Assembly: GCA_017403155.1 (NCBI GenBank)
Contig: JAFQOP010000003.1
Span: 2,504 to 66,503 of the forward strand
Source: Clostridia bacterium
GTDB taxonomy: Bacteria; Bacillota; Clostridia; Oscillospirales; CAG-272
DNA: 64,000 nucleotides
Reading direction: 5' to 3'
A program made the position numbers and the translations under genes. Of the stretch, positions 821 to 6,728 are shown in pieces (within the stretch, counting starts at the first letter, position 1; every line of letters starts with the position of its first letter). The notes under the pieces were generated by a model. That model saw only the letters and a list, made by a program, of their open reading frames with translations, did no database searches and had not been told where the DNA came from.

Positions 821-983
821 CTGTCTTCAGCAGGTCAGTTTTTGATATTTGAGGGTTGAAATCCTTCTGATTGAACAATGGACTATTTTTGAAAAAAGTA
901 GGCGCGAAAAAACGGGAGAAATCTCTCGAAATCTCCTGTTTTCTCTTGTTTTTTCTTTCGGATCTTTTTTGACAGATAGCCAT

Positions 984-1250
984 GTGAAGAGCGGACAAAA
1001 AAGATATTTTTAAGTGTTTTCGTATTGACTTGAATTCACGTACCAAATCGCGCCGAAAGGCGTGTATGGAATCAATGCAAAGAATTGTATGGAATCCGTT
1101 GCAAGACGGTATGGAATCAAGCCGAAGAAAATGCACCTTCGGTGATGCCATGCGCCTACGGCGATTCCATTCTCACCTGCGGTGAGATTACATACCAAGC
1201 CTGCGGCTTGGATAAAAAAATTCGACAAGTCGAAACCTGTCGAATTTTTT
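984..1250. repeat. repeat unit A: 28-bp header, motif/hairpin array, terminator-like hairpin
   Basis: Header gtgaagagcggacaaaaaagatattttt (984-1011) is identical to 1251-1278. gtatggaatc occurs 3x direct (1064, 1087, 1109; period 22-23 nt). Three inverted, partly degenerate copies follow (gatgccat 1144, gattccat 1163, gattacatac 1186). Seven short GC stems with 3-4 nt loops are interleaved. The unit ends with an A-run/hairpin/T-run at 1214-1250. Confidence 0.7.
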
Positions 1251-1517
1251 GTGAAGAGCGGACAAAAAAGATATTTTTCGTTGTTTTGATATGGACTTGA
1301 ACTTGTGTGTTAATGAAGCATCGGCTTACGCCGATATGAAGCACTCGCTACGCACGTATGAAGTATTTGCTACGCAAATATGAAGCGAAGCGCGTGTAAC
1401 CTCTCCGTGAGCCAAAGGCTCGCTTCATAGGGCGAAGTCCTGCTTCATTTTTCATGCGTCGTAGACGCGCTTCATTGAAAAAACGACAAACTTCTGTCGA
1501 AGCTTGTCGTTTTTTCT
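1251..1517. repeat. repeat unit B: same 28-bp header and architecture, different internal motif
   Basis: Header at 1251-1278. atgaagc/atgaagt occurs 4x direct (1313, 1336, 1358, 1380; period 22-23 nt) and gcttcat inverted (1422, 1442, 1469, plus partial 1451). Tri-loop hairpins are interleaved: atcggc-ttac-gccgat 1320-1335, atttgc-tac-gcaaat 1365-1379, gcgtc-gta-gacgc 1456-1468. atgaagcga (1380-1388) is perfectly complementary to tcgcttcat (1420-1428). The unit ends with an A-run/hairpin/T-run at 1478-1516. Confidence 0.7.
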
Positions 1518-1592
1518 GGCAGGGGCGGAAGGACTCGAACCCACGACCCATGGTTTTGGAGACCAGTACTCTACCAACTGAGCTACACCCCT
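1517..1592 (-). tRNA. trnW: tRNA-Trp (anticodon CCA), CCA end encoded
   Basis: The reverse complement folds as a cloverleaf: acceptor AGGGGTG/CGCCCCT, D-arm GCTC-AGTTGGTA-GAGT, anticodon arm CTGGT-CTCCAAA-ACCAT (CCA anticodon flanked by CT and AA), T-arm GTGGG-TTCGAGT-CCTTC, then discriminator G plus CCA. The T-stem has one T:T mismatch and one G:T pair. Confidence 0.85.
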
Positions 1593-1604: not shown

Positions 1605-1633
1605 ATTATACTAGATTTATCTGCGTTTGTCAA
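1605..1633 (-). promoter_or_regulatory. sigma-A type promoter for tRNA-Trp
   Basis: On the minus strand: TTGACA (1633-1628), 17-nt spacer, TATAAT (1610-1605), about 12 nt upstream of the mature tRNA 5' end. Confidence 0.75.
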
Positions 1634-2549: not shown

Positions 2550-2786
2550 GACAAAGGAATAAACGAGTGGTATTGCCCCATTGGGCATTGTCGGGGCGGG
2601 TATTGGCTCACCTCGGGGATAAGGAAAGTGCGGTGAAAATCCGCCACAACAGCCATTACCGTAAAAGTCGGAATGCTTATCACCTCTTGCACTAAAGGGA
2701 TTCTTCGGGCAAACGGAGGAGTCGGCGCGGCAGGGTGAAGACTGCCTATTTTCGCTTGGCACTCCGTGGAGGAGTGCTTTTATTTT
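2550..2786 (+). promoter_or_regulatory. candidate cobalamin (B12) riboswitch with terminator expression platform
   Basis: About 240-nt structured leader. It contains ggtgaaaatccgccacaacagcc (compare the conserved GGTGNNAAATCC...GCCAC core) and aagtcggaatgc (B12-box-like). It ends in hairpin gcactcc (2759-2765)/ggagtgc (2771-2777) plus a T-run. The downstream genes (DUF4430-type lipoprotein, small polytopic membrane protein) are classic B12-regulon members. Confidence 0.55.
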
Positions 2787-4319: not shown

Positions 4320-6728
4320 ATGGGTATCAAAATTGCCCTGGCAGGTAACCCGAACTGCGGTAAGACCACCCTGTTCAACGCACTCACGGGCTCTAATCAG
4401 TTCGTCGGCAACTGGCCGGGTGTTACCGTGGAGAAGAAGGAGGGAAAGCTGAAGGGGCGCGACGACGTTATCATCACCGACCTTCCCGGCATTTATTCGC
4501 TCTCTCCCTATACGCTTGAGGAGGTTGTGGCAAGAAACTACCTTATAGTCGAGCGCCCCGACGCGATTCTTAACATCGTCGACGGCACCAACCTTGAGCG
4601 CAATCTCTATCTCACCACTCAGCTTTGCGAGATAGGTATCCCCGTTGTAATTGCCATCAATATGATGGACGTTGTAAGAAAGAACGGCGACAAGATAGAC
4701 ACCGAGCAGCTCTCGCGCGAGCTTGGCTGTCCGATCGTTGAGATATCCGCCCTCAAGAGCACGGGTATCCTCGAGGCGGCAGAGGTGGCGATAGAGACGG
4801 CAAAGGGCGGCAAAACCGTTCCGATGCATACCTTCTCGGGTATAGTTGAGCACGCACTCGCACACATCGAGGAGGCAGCGATTCACGGTCTGCCTGAGGA
4901 GCAGCAGCGCTGGTATTCCATTAAGATATTCGAGAGGGACGCGAGGGTAATCGAGGCACTCAAGATAGATAAGGAAAAGCTCGCTCACATCGAAAAGGAT
5001 ATACAAAGGGCAGAGCACGACCTCGACGATGATGCCGAGGGCATCATTACCAACGAGCGCTATCTCTACATAGAGCAGCTGACGAAGCGCTGCTACAAGA
5101 AAAAGCACGCGAACAGACTCACCGTGTCCGATAAGATAGACAAGGTGGTAACCAACCGCATACTTGCCCTTCCTATCTTCGCGCTCGTTATGTTCCTTGT
5201 GTATTTCATTTCGGTAACCACGGTCGGAACGTGGGTGACCGACTTTACCAACGACGGCCTCTTCGGTGACGGCTGGCATCTCTTCGGTATAAACGGAGAC
5301 TATGATACTCACGTCGAGGAATACGCCGAGCCGTTATGGACGGAGGCAGACCTGCTATACAGTCTCGAGAGTGCTACCGATGCCGACGTGCCGGGTGCGG
5401 ACGAGGTTCTCGACGCATTCCGCGAGAAGGACTACGGTGCCTTTGAGGAGGCATACGGCAGCTACGGTGCAGCCCTCGTTGAGGACGGATTTATATCCGA
5501 GGAGAGGGACGCATACCTCTCCGGGTACTTTGAGGGTGCTCCCGACCCGTCCGAATACGGTGTTTGGGTGCCCGGCATCGGCGTGCTTGTTGCCTCGGGG
5601 CTTCAGGCAATCGGCTGCTGGGAGTGGCTTGAGAGCCTTATCGTGGACGGCATCGTAGGCGGTGTCGGTGCGGTGCTCGGCTTCGTGCCCCAGATGCTTG
5701 TGCTCTTCCTTCTTCTCGCATTCCTCGAGGCGTGCGGCTATATGTCTCGTATCGCCTTTGTGCTTGACAGAATATTCAGAAAGTTCGGTCTTTCGGGCAA
5801 GTCCTTTATTCCTATGCTTATCGGCACGGGCTGTGGCGTTCCCGGTATTATGGCATCCCGCACGATAGAAAACGAGCGCGACCGCCGTATGACTATTATC
5901 ACAACCACCTTCGTGCCCTGCGGTGCGAAGCTGCCGATTATCGCGCTCATCGCCTCCGCCCTCTTCGGCGGTGCCTGGTGGGTAGCCCCCTCGGCATACT
6001 TTATCGGTATTGCCGCAGTAATCATCTCGGGCATTATGCTGAAGAAGACAAAGCCCTTCGCAGGCGAGCCCGCTCCCTTTGTAATGGAGCTGCCCGCATA
6101 TCATATGCCCACCGTCATAAACCTCCTTCGCTCTATGTGGGAGCGCGGCTGGTCCTTCATCAAGAAGGCAGGCACGGTAATCCTTCTCTCCTCCGTAATA
6201 ATCTGGGCAACCTCCAGCCTCGGCTTTGTTGACGGTGCGTTTACCTTCGACCCCGAGATGGATATAGCAAACTCCTTCCTCGGCTATTTCGGTATGGCAT
6301 TCTCCTGGCTCTTTGCGCCCCTGGGCTTCGGCTCCATCGAGGCAACGGTGGCAACCTTTATGGGTCTGCTTGCCAAGGAGGAGGTCGTCGGAGTATTCGG
6401 AGTGCTTGAGTTTGTAGGCCTCGGAAAGCTCGAGGGCTTCTCATTCCTGCTCTTCAACCTTCTTTGCGCACCCTGCTTTGCGGCTATCGGCGCAATCAAG
6501 CGCGAGATGAACAACACCAAGTGGACCCTCTTTGCGATAGGCTATCAGACCCTGCTCGCATACTGCGTGTCCTTCTGTCTGTACAACATCGGCTCGCTCT
6601 TCGTAGGCACCTTCAATTGGTGGGAGCCTATAACCTTCACGATCTCCCTCGCTATAATCGCATTCGTAGTTTATATGCTCGTCCGCCCCTACAAGGATAG
6701 CACCGATAATAAAATCAAAAGCCTCTGA
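4320..6728 (+). CDS. feoB: ferrous iron transporter FeoB
   Basis: G-domain motifs GNPNCGKTT, DLPG and NMMD, followed by a polytopic permease. 802 aa, including an acidic insert of about 130 aa after the first TM helix. Confidence 0.95.
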   Translation: MGIKIALAGNPNCGKTTLFNALTGSNQFVGNWPGVTVEKKEGKLKGRDDVIITDLPGIYSLSPYTLEEVVARNYLIVERPDAILNIVDGTNLERNLYLTTQLCEIGIPVVIAINMMDVVRKNGDKIDTEQLSRELGCPIVEISALKSTGILEAAEVAIETAKGGKTVPMHTFSGIVEHALAHIEEAAIHGLPEEQQRWYSIKIFERDARVIEALKIDKEKLAHIEKDIQRAEHDLDDDAEGIITNERYLYIEQLTKRCYKKKHANRLTVSDKIDKVVTNRILALPIFALVMFLVYFISVTTVGTWVTDFTNDGLFGDGWHLFGINGDYDTHVEEYAEPLWTEADLLYSLESATDADVPGADEVLDAFREKDYGAFEEAYGSYGAALVEDGFISEERDAYLSGYFEGAPDPSEYGVWVPGIGVLVASGLQAIGCWEWLESLIVDGIVGGVGAVLGFVPQMLVLFLLLAFLEACGYMSRIAFVLDRIFRKFGLSGKSFIPMLIGTGCGVPGIMASRTIENERDRRMTIITTTFVPCGAKLPIIALIASALFGGAWWVAPSAYFIGIAAVIISGIMLKKTKPFAGEPAPFVMELPAYHMPTVINLLRSMWERGWSFIKKAGTVILLSSVIIWATSSLGFVDGAFTFDPEMDIANSFLGYFGMAFSWLFAPLGFGSIEATVATFMGLLAKEEVVGVFGVLEFVGLGKLEGFSFLLFNLLCAPCFAAIGAIKREMNNTKWTLFAIGYQTLLAYCVSFCLYNIGSLFVGTFNWWEPITFTISLAIIAFVVYMLVRPYKDSTDNKIKSL

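Follow-up and report, generated by a model that had tools for sequence, protein, structure and literature searches.

Stacked units behind a tRNA-Trp gene of a Clostridia bacterium as probable mobile tRNA-end cassettes with a Gut-1-type core

The stretch of DNA analyzed here (64,000 nucleotides of contig JAFQOP010000003.1 from a Clostridia bacterium, referred to as the window) contains two stacked units of 267 bp, units A and B, next to a gene for tRNA-Trp. Together they amount to 534 bp, and they are very probably mobile cassettes that occupy the ends of tRNA genes and carry a core of the type known as the Gut-1 RNA motif (Rfam RF01706). The 534 bp are an insertion exactly between the CCA end of tRNA-Trp and its native trailer, as seen from a comparison with orthologues of the beta-propeller gene located upstream of the units. 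In the related loci L026–L029, where the neighboring protein is 95% identical, the flank '...cggatcttttttgaccgatagaca' or '...gatcttttttgaccgatagaca' is joined straight to TGGCAGGGG, the 3' end of tRNA-Trp, whereas the window reads '...cggatcttttttgacagatagcca' at that junction, followed by units A and B and only then by TGGCAGGGG. The site is empty in L026–L029 and L031 and filled in the window, L023 and L024. In L030, where the beta-propeller protein is 93% identical, a tRNA-Gln gene with a body of another word class (GTGATAT) occupies the same position downstream of that gene. Because unit B sits between the tRNA and unit A, we regard it as the later arrival.

The terminator of a cassette was found directly after the CCA in 12 of the 15 filled sites examined (nine with arrays); the exceptions are L132 and L136, which are offset by 3 nt by the coordinates used, and L021, where another hairpin comes first. 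The distal end of the cassettes always reads ...CTCTTCRCA, which leaves a 2-nt CA ambiguity, and the proximal boundary is formed by an A-run of variable length (4–8 nt). The features of the window locus are as follows.

906–983, minus strand: native 3' trailer of tRNA-Trp with its terminator hairpin (arms 906–921 and 940–955), the homologue of which lies directly 3' of the CCA in L026–L029 and L031
983–1045, plus strand: header of unit A, the distal end of the cassette, starting with the word-like GTGAAGAG and with an inner part resembling a decayed tRNA T-arm fragment
1047–1212, no strand assigned: body of unit A, a dyad array with mini-hairpins between the words, in which the GNRA/GNA loop strand reads inward
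1215–1250, no strand assigned: bidirectional, sequence-conserved terminator of unit A (AAAAAATTCGACAAGT cgaa ACCTGTCGAATTTTTT)
1250–1311, plus strand: header of unit B, identical to the header of unit A over 29 nt
1312–1476, no strand assigned: body of unit B, a dyad array with a sub-threshold Gut-1 match in its tRNA-proximal half
1477–1516, no strand assigned: bidirectional terminator of unit B, which begins right after the CCA of tRNA-Trp and now serves as the tRNA-Trp terminator
1517–1592, minus strand: gene for tRNA-Trp(cca), with its CCA end as the insertion point
1605–1633, minus strand: perfect sigma-70-type promoter of tRNA-Trp (TTGACA-17-TATAAT), the only promoter able to feed read-through into the units

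A first-pass annotation of this region, made from the letters of the window, had listed two 267-bp units, mini-hairpin spacers and terminators, nearly all of which are present where it placed them; it had missed the insertion at the CCA end, the role of the header as distal boundary, the mirror symmetry of the body and the links to Gut-1 and to the protein family PF05635. The identical header, which it gave as 28 bp at 984 and 1251, extends over 29 nt (TGTGAAGAGCGGACAAAAAAGATATTTTT, 983–1011 and 1250–1278) within a 52-nt stretch that is 88% identical between the units; shuffled sequences gave no match to it, and no third copy exists within the window. In unit A, the direct words GTATGGAATC start at 1064, 1087 and 1109 (spacing 23 and 22) and the inverted words at 1144 (a degenerate GATGCCATGC), 1163 and 1186. 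In unit B, direct words ATGAAGC/T start at 1313, 1336, 1358 and 1380 and inverted words GCTTCAT at 1422, 1442 and 1469. Equal numbers of direct and inverted copies, as originally proposed, are thus seen in unit A (three each, counting the degenerate one) but not in unit B (four direct and three clear inverted words). The perfect complementarity reported for the innermost word pair of unit B spans 10 nt (1379–1388 / 1420–1429), and the same architecture with differing words was correctly recognized.

Both units end in terminator-like palindromes (1215–1250 and 1477–1516) with arms of 16 and 18 nt that are 94% complementary. We take the hairpin at 906–955 for the native terminator of tRNA-Trp, because the same flank abuts the CCA in the strains with an empty site. 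The terminator hairpin of the unit A type abuts the CCA of genes for tmRNA and for Met, Val and Gln tRNAs in L001, L004, L014 and L016. As a separate observation, the terminator stems CGACAAG...CTTGTCG are conserved across loci (1221–1244 and 1484–1509 in the window; L001, L004, L012, L159), and they contain TGTCGAA/TTCGACA, which we take to match the consensus of the Spo0A box. CGACAAG itself is over-represented across the window, with 23 forward and 18 reverse copies compared to about 4 expected per strand.

To sample the family, we searched for the header with a 20-mer derived from the window, obtaining 12 true loci and 4 chance matches in coding sequence. The loci are from metagenome-assembled genomes of gut Clostridia, with human, sheep and roe deer among the sources, and share one order. 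The header, conserved over about 60 nt, precedes a body whose word is specific to the locus (GTATATCATC, GTATGGAATC or GTGATAT), and the terminator and a convergent gene for tmRNA or for a Thr, Met, Gln, Val or Tyr tRNA come next. Homologous units are 75–91% identical from header to terminator. Along its full extent (274 nt, terminator included), unit A shares 88.7% identity with a unit behind tRNA-Met in a Stercoripulliclostridium genome (L004). Its identity to the unit in L007 is 91%, and its header fits the 14-member header alignment with an nhmmer E value of 4e-19. Unit B has a full-length homologue in L169 (85% mean column identity) with compensatory changes in the hairpins and in the terminator stem. 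We detected no plasmid or phage matches to the units by blastn and no header 21-mer in viral contigs, and a metagenome scan with the header pattern returned only 4 true loci, all with gene cargo.

The proposed Rfam scan gave no match in either unit at the gathering threshold. A permissive scan detected Gut-1 at 1397–1477 of the minus strand with 24 bits (cut-off 50, E 0.04), which corresponds to the tRNA-proximal half of unit B in the orientation of the tRNA; unit A gave no match. The Gut-1 consensus consists of three repeats of a UGAAAU word plus hairpin. Its linker (G)UGAAAU is replaced by AUGAAGC in unit B and by GUAUGGAAUC in unit A, but at least three short hairpins split by one repeated 7-nt linker word are present in both units (3–4 words per half), as in Gut-1, where word and hairpin are repeated 3–4 times. 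Two bodies with GTGAAAT words pass the Gut-1 threshold in L005 (64–69 bits), where they lie beside a canonical header unit and a degenerate header precedes a GTGAAAT body; in one of them, both mirrored halves pass on opposite strands with 69.4 and 52.7 bits. From a scan of IMG/VR contigs with a GTGAAAT x3 pattern, which mostly gave chance matches, a filter for inverted words retained 12 true bodies. Nine further canonical bodies from these contigs score 50.8–77.5 bits, each located behind a tRNA or a CCA-ending minihelix and the conserved terminator.

Even the seed sequence of Gut-1 with its flanks, taken from the 2010 supplement, reads tRNA-CCA, terminator, three copies of GUGAUAUU and then four of AAUAUCAC. 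Published Gut-1 is therefore one half of a mirror-symmetric dyad, of which the Rfam model covers a single half-array. Weinberg et al. 2010 (PMC2864571) only state that it was found in human gut sequences, and no function and no cultivated host are given in the Gut-1 literature we searched, including the supplement; the published description lacks the dyad layout, the header, the insertion at tRNA ends and the link to PF05635. The same niche in Clostridia of human and animal guts, with the terminator directly after the tRNA CCA, the mirrored layout with direct followed by inverted words, and the co-occurrence in L005 indicate that the window units are diverged relatives of Gut-1 which fail the membership score of Rfam.

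Some loci near canonical bodies showed additional features. L129 (110–340), as well as L073, L080, L139 and L149, contains an RNA-like segment of about 95 nt between the tRNA terminator and the Gut-1 body, which lacks an Rfam match and terminates with a hairpin and GCCA (…tccctccttacaaagtaagttgggggagcca); the distal side of the Gut-1 body in loci of this type abuts the 3' third of a gene for an IS256-type transposase. A gene between the Gut-1 units of L005 (4062–4505, minus strand) was considered as a transposase and rejected, since it codes for a protein similar to Rhs immunity proteins. Members of this small-gene family are mostly found on contigs under 2 kb, and the one in L157 (5001–5414) directly follows the gene for a 2004-aa RHS/YD-repeat toxin, so the L005 gene is probably an orphan Rhs immunity gene.

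The anatomy of the arrays was derived from 24 segmented bodies. At least four uninterrupted Watson-Crick pairs are formed in 53 of the 69 distinct spacers, compared to 2.5 in shuffled sequences (maximum 8), and the spacer stems mostly abut the words directly. Hairpin sequences turn over freely with compensatory changes, and each unit keeps its words constant; in the comparison of the ATGGAAT with the ATATCAT class, all six words differ in concert and several hairpins are retained. Words and spacer hairpins are thus both under selection, and a concerted change of the words is what a single factor reading several sites should produce. Triloops make up about half of the loops, and most loops read C-GNA-G or GNRA on one strand. 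This stable-loop strand is opposite in the two halves of an array: it reads outward in unit B and canonical Gut-1 but inward in units of the L001 type and in unit A, the half-arrays of unit A being swapped relative to unit B. A recurrent hairpin of the form NNN-TCGC-loop-GCTC-NNN has tandem G-A pairs on its GNRA strand and covarying outer stems.

Word spacing over the family ranges from 16 to 27 nt, and the 22–23 nt seen in the window do not represent the rule of two helical turns that the first-pass annotation had suggested. This bears on its proposal of an iteron origin or partition centromere, in which a double-stranded array would be bound cooperatively on one helical face. The local spacing of 22–23 bp and the direct and inverted orientation of the words fit such an array, and their concerted change and the heptad runs of sister cassettes (see below) speak for words bound by a protein, but with no fixed helical phasing in the family, no rep or par genes present, no plasmid or phage matches and no explanation for the palindromic spacers, an origin or centromere is largely excluded. 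The likewise proposed genome-specific family of repetitive extragenic palindromes (REP) is right in that the cassettes recur and move, as the empty site and the copies behind many tRNAs show, but they are not specific to one genome. RAYT-associated REP elements and bacterial interspersed mosaic elements repeat a palindrome of conserved sequence with a conserved 5' tetranucleotide across the genome. In the units, by contrast, every module has its own hairpin sequence and conservation is limited to the words, and there are no further copies in the 64 kb.

Folded as RNA, both strands are far more stable than shuffled sequences, with z values of -5.4 to -7.1. The corresponding values for DNA folding are -4.2 and -6.0, with word-word helices enclosing the hairpins. 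In the minimum-energy folds, the direct words pair with the inverted words around the hairpins, producing a ladder of junctions. By inspection, we saw no complementarity between the loops of mirrored hairpins, nor are the words complementary to the neighboring tRNA. Of the stem pairs, 348 are Watson-Crick, 5 are G-T and 3 are A-C, without strand bias. The resulting G-U share of 1.4%, with A-C mismatches about equally frequent, is unusual for RNA; assigning a strand from G-U versus A-C pairs was tried and dropped because there were too few of either and no bias.

These data need to be weighed against a classical small RNA (sRNA) of the Gut-1 type; structured small RNAs had also been considered in the first-pass annotation. 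An RNA of this type would be made by read-through from the tRNA promoter or from an unrecognized promoter in the header and would present the words, single-stranded, along a row of hairpins as a multivalent sponge or scaffold for an RNA-binding protein, its mobility being incidental. Rfam and Weinberg et al. 2010 (PMC2864571) class Gut-1 as a likely sRNA with covariation, and the strong hairpin covariation, the GNRA loops with tandem G-A pairs and the RNA folding values agree with this, as do the intrinsic terminators bracketing the units and the perfect tRNA promoter ahead of them. In L136, moreover, a canonical Gut-1 body lies directly upstream of an open reading frame (ORF) for a PF05635 protein with no clear promoter in between. 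On the other hand, in agreement with the first-pass annotation, no sigma-70-type promoter lies within the units, and inspection and scanning of the header for sigma-70, extended -10, extracytoplasmic function (ECF), sigma-54 and sporulation-type patterns gave nothing convincing on either strand; a weak TTCAAG-17-NAAAAT that faces outward on the strand of the tRNA was the only candidate. A conserved RNA fold is absent from the header, and a unit read in tRNA orientation starts behind a strong terminator. The scarcity of wobble pairs and the triloop share also argue against an sRNA, and a single RNA would require neither the flip of the stable-loop strand nor the swapped halves of unit A. Furthermore, sister cassettes contain these words next to a promoter in the form of heptad runs that lack hairpins. 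Compared to the CsrB/RsmZ sponge RNAs, the words lie between the hairpins instead of in the loops, and GGA is present only in the word of unit A. Overall, a classical sRNA is a serious rival, if less likely than not, and a role at the DNA level, single-stranded or cruciform, receives slightly more weight because of the wobble avoidance, the strand symmetry, the missing promoter and the hairpin-free heptad counterparts.

Ultra-stable C-GNA-G mini-hairpins of DNA are present at single-strand origins, parvoviral ends and Streptomyces telomeres. The arrays appear similar to them in their clustered short GC stems, their GAA, GTA and GCA triloops (including GCGAAGC), their sheared G-A pairs and their branched fold-backs, but there is no replication or telomere context at the window units. 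A second likeness concerns the heptads of the omega protein of inc18 plasmids (pSM19035), which form uninterrupted stretches of double-stranded DNA next to par and cop promoters. Both systems consist of multiple 7-bp words in direct and inverted orientation, and the cassette word ATATCAC contains the heptad WATCACW, but the cassette words are separated by hairpin-forming spacers. No gene for a ribbon-helix-helix protein was found among the genes examined beside cassettes.

The same frame of CGACAAG-type terminator and header encloses genes in other loci. These are co-oriented with the tRNA, and the last cargo gene has its stop codon directly at the header. A gene for a four-helix-bundle protein of family PF05635 occurs together with a GNAT gene in L012, L015 and L022 and with a decayed second ORF in L011, L017, L019 and L021, and L002 resembles a gene-carrying cassette of the latter kind from which the genes were deleted. 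In L169, a PF05635 cassette and an array cassette of the B type are stacked, each ending in a header. PF05635 is a very abundant family known from intervening sequences of 23S rRNA and related to Avd of diversity-generating retroelements. Searching with the members around the cassettes gave 7861 matches, of which the top 120 are all at least 84% identical, and most of the relatives are on contigs shorter than 2 kb, as would be the case for a multicopy element at which assemblies break. The 23S rRNA intervening sequences with a PF05635 (S23p) ORF resemble the cassettes as small selfish insertions of sporadic distribution in transcription units of stable RNAs with the same protein family, but the cassettes lie after the mature tRNA 3' end instead of inside an rRNA helix, and the window units have no ORF.

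The PF05635 cassettes also contain uninterrupted runs of the heptads GTGAAGA/GTGAAAA beside the same terminator. The words themselves are alike: ATGAAGC in unit B, GCTTCAC in the L169 homologue of unit B and, at the start of the header, GTGAAGAG. PF05635 is the only recurrent neighbor and, judged from these sequences, the leading candidate for a protein binding the words, since words with their hairpins folded out would resemble the heptad runs of the PF05635 cassettes.

The header is the distal end of the cassette, about 60 nt long and unstructured, as RNAalifold gave no conserved RNA fold. A tRNA-like fold was considered and rejected because a proper T-arm is absent in either orientation. 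In L159, L160 and L164, an otherwise identical cassette with PF05635 and GNAT genes has, in place of the header, at least 24 nt that exactly repeat the 3' end of tRNA-Gln, and the inner part of the header aligns to this repeat (ACGTGAGTTCAAGTCC.TAC vs. TCGTGGGTTCAAATCCTAC). We therefore read the header as a decayed, att-like fragment of a tRNA 3' end plus an old trailer. At the distal junction in the window, the tRNA 3' end is not directly repeated, and the header contains just the degenerate T-arm-like piece. As a side observation, every cassette's distal end contains GCTCTTC 3 nt from the insertion boundary (984–990 and 1251–1257 in the window, as GAAGAGC), presumably the recognition sequence of SapI/BspQI, which may be a coincidence.

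The cassettes share their target, their variable cargo, their stacking and, in L159, the exact direct repeat with the genomic islets that site-specific recombinases integrate, flanked by attL and attR, at the 3' ends of tRNA and tmRNA genes. They differ in their size of only 0.27–1.1 kb without an integrase, in the generic degenerate header that most of them have instead of a tRNA-specific repeat, and in the presence of one cassette type behind many different tRNAs. A related explanation is a bare recombination site, in which a unit would be a minimal attP whose header end and terminator meet at the crossover in a circle, with the half-arrays as arms and the words as arm-type sites for a class-specific integrase, without any function for the host. 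The 267 bp of a unit are about the size of lambda attP, integration at tRNA and tmRNA 3' ends is precise, one cassette type is flanked by a direct repeat, all words of both arms evolve in concert, and the heptad runs of gene-carrying cassettes lie next to the junction. L169 and L172 also contain a large serine recombinase gene (Recombinase, Zn_ribbon_recom and DUF4368 domains; 6196–6351, minus strand) about 2.8 kb beyond the stacked cassettes at tRNA-Gln, past a gene for a leucine-rich repeat protein. However, most loci have no linked integrase, palindromic spacers are not explained by arm sites on double-stranded DNA, the targets have no more than the CCA and T-arm in common, less than a typical tyrosine recombinase would need, and circular forms were not observed. 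We consider a mere attP site unlikely.

The boundaries could alternatively reflect retroposition, with a DNA copy of an RNA reaching from the header start to the U-tract of the terminator, reverse transcription primed by the 3'-OH of a mature CCA-ending RNA and fixation at the gene of that RNA. This would account for the proximal boundary exactly after the CCA of many unrelated tRNAs, tmRNA and a CCA-ending minihelix, for the variable A-run of 4–8 nt as the would-be complement of the U-tail, for the fixed distal boundary and for the lack of inverted terminal repeats and target duplications. However, none of the 14 header loci is a promoter-bearing master copy, no reverse transcriptase gene is nearby, the cargo genes are antisense to the postulated transcript, and the direct repeat in L159 fits recombination better, which makes this explanation very improbable.

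Other traces were seen at the tRNA-Trp locus. The spacer separating tRNA-Trp from the beta-propeller gene contains T-arm-like fragments of tRNA-Trp (e.g., gtcgtgggttcaagtccttccg) in antisense orientation to the tRNA gene, at about 850–895 of the window, 4510–4720 of L026 and 4495–4640 of L031; in L031, a header-like GTGAAGAGCGtgaaaaaacgg also precedes one of them. Earlier events at this hot spot may have left these fragments behind as scars. Strains with an identical 633-aa beta-propeller protein show three contexts past tRNA-Trp (L33/SecE/NusG, a helix-turn-helix regulator and a PALP enzyme), and the tRNA locus in L026–L031 is either a rearrangement hot spot or a point of chimeric assembly. 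The genes neighboring the units in the window code for an ECF sigma factor, the beta-propeller protein, a lipoprotein and FeoAB; as the first-pass annotation had it, there is no adjacent replication, partition or reverse transcriptase gene, and neither the window nor the Rhs-related loci contain other arrays. An aptamer of an AdoCbl-II (cobalamin) riboswitch is present at 2619–2680 (plus strand; 39.6 bits, cut-off 36.5), upstream of a lipoprotein-like ORF starting at 2823.

Our explanation for the units is that of a cassette consisting of a bidirectional terminator abutting the CCA, a dyad array of modules with a word of 7–10 nt and a mini-hairpin each, and the distal header. The cassettes are non-autonomous, and a recombinase supplied in trans would insert them at CCA ends. 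Each word class would have one specific protein docking at its words. In single-stranded form, be it of the DNA or of a transcript, the spacers would fold out as hairpins with stems abutting the words, so that consecutive words become contiguous and direct words may pair with inverted words; the folded array would thereby recreate the uninterrupted heptad array (GTGAAGA repeats) of the sister cassettes beside the same terminator, and the four-helix-bundle protein of PF05635 might bind it. Taken as a whole, with the docking mechanism included, we rate this explanation as slightly better than even, while the specific claim of a platform for a word-specific protein on folded single strands, which is deduced from sequence patterns, is tentative.

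Several observations weigh against this explanation. Mismatches between direct and inverted words are conserved and not compensated, so word-word pairing may not be a selected feature. Terminal inverted repeats are absent, the two ends (terminator hairpin and header) being unrelated to each other, and a target-site duplication amounts at most to the ambiguous 2-nt CA, in contrast to what defines a miniature inverted-repeat transposable element or an insertion sequence. No recombinase or transposase gene was found inside or consistently beside any cassette, and none carries an integrase, the window units being non-coding and the cargo of the sister cassettes consisting of PF05635 with or without GNAT. 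A PF05635 gene was not found in the window. The conservation of the header is partly forced, because the 20-mer used for the search came from the window. Finally, GNRA loops, tandem G-A pairs, intrinsic terminators on both sides and a strong tRNA promoter ahead of the units agree just as well with RNA, as which Rfam files Gut-1.

Gut-1 has been in Rfam since 2010, and the window locus with its relatives places it in gut Clostridia assembled from metagenomes. New compared to the published motif are its true extent, symmetry, mobility, target and protein neighbor. The Gut-1 module is thereby tied to a precise behavior, insertion after the CCA of tRNA and tmRNA genes with stacking and exchangeable cargo, and it becomes testable which protein reads the words and which enzyme inserts DNA exactly at the CCA end. 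As multicopy cassettes that sit on very short contigs, these elements probably break gut metagenome assemblies at tRNA loci. In the boldest version, which we regard as unlikely, the Gut-1 'RNAs' would not be RNA genes but the working part of minimal mobile cassettes of a so far unrecognized class, homing to the CCA of any stable-RNA gene. The dyad array, single-stranded or extruded as a cruciform in the DNA, would fold into four-way junctions arranged as a ladder, and the heptads would thereby become contiguous again for a class-specific protein, possibly PF05635 / Avd-like. If the explanation by cassettes and a heptad ladder is true, it would provide the first function for both Gut-1 and PF05635.

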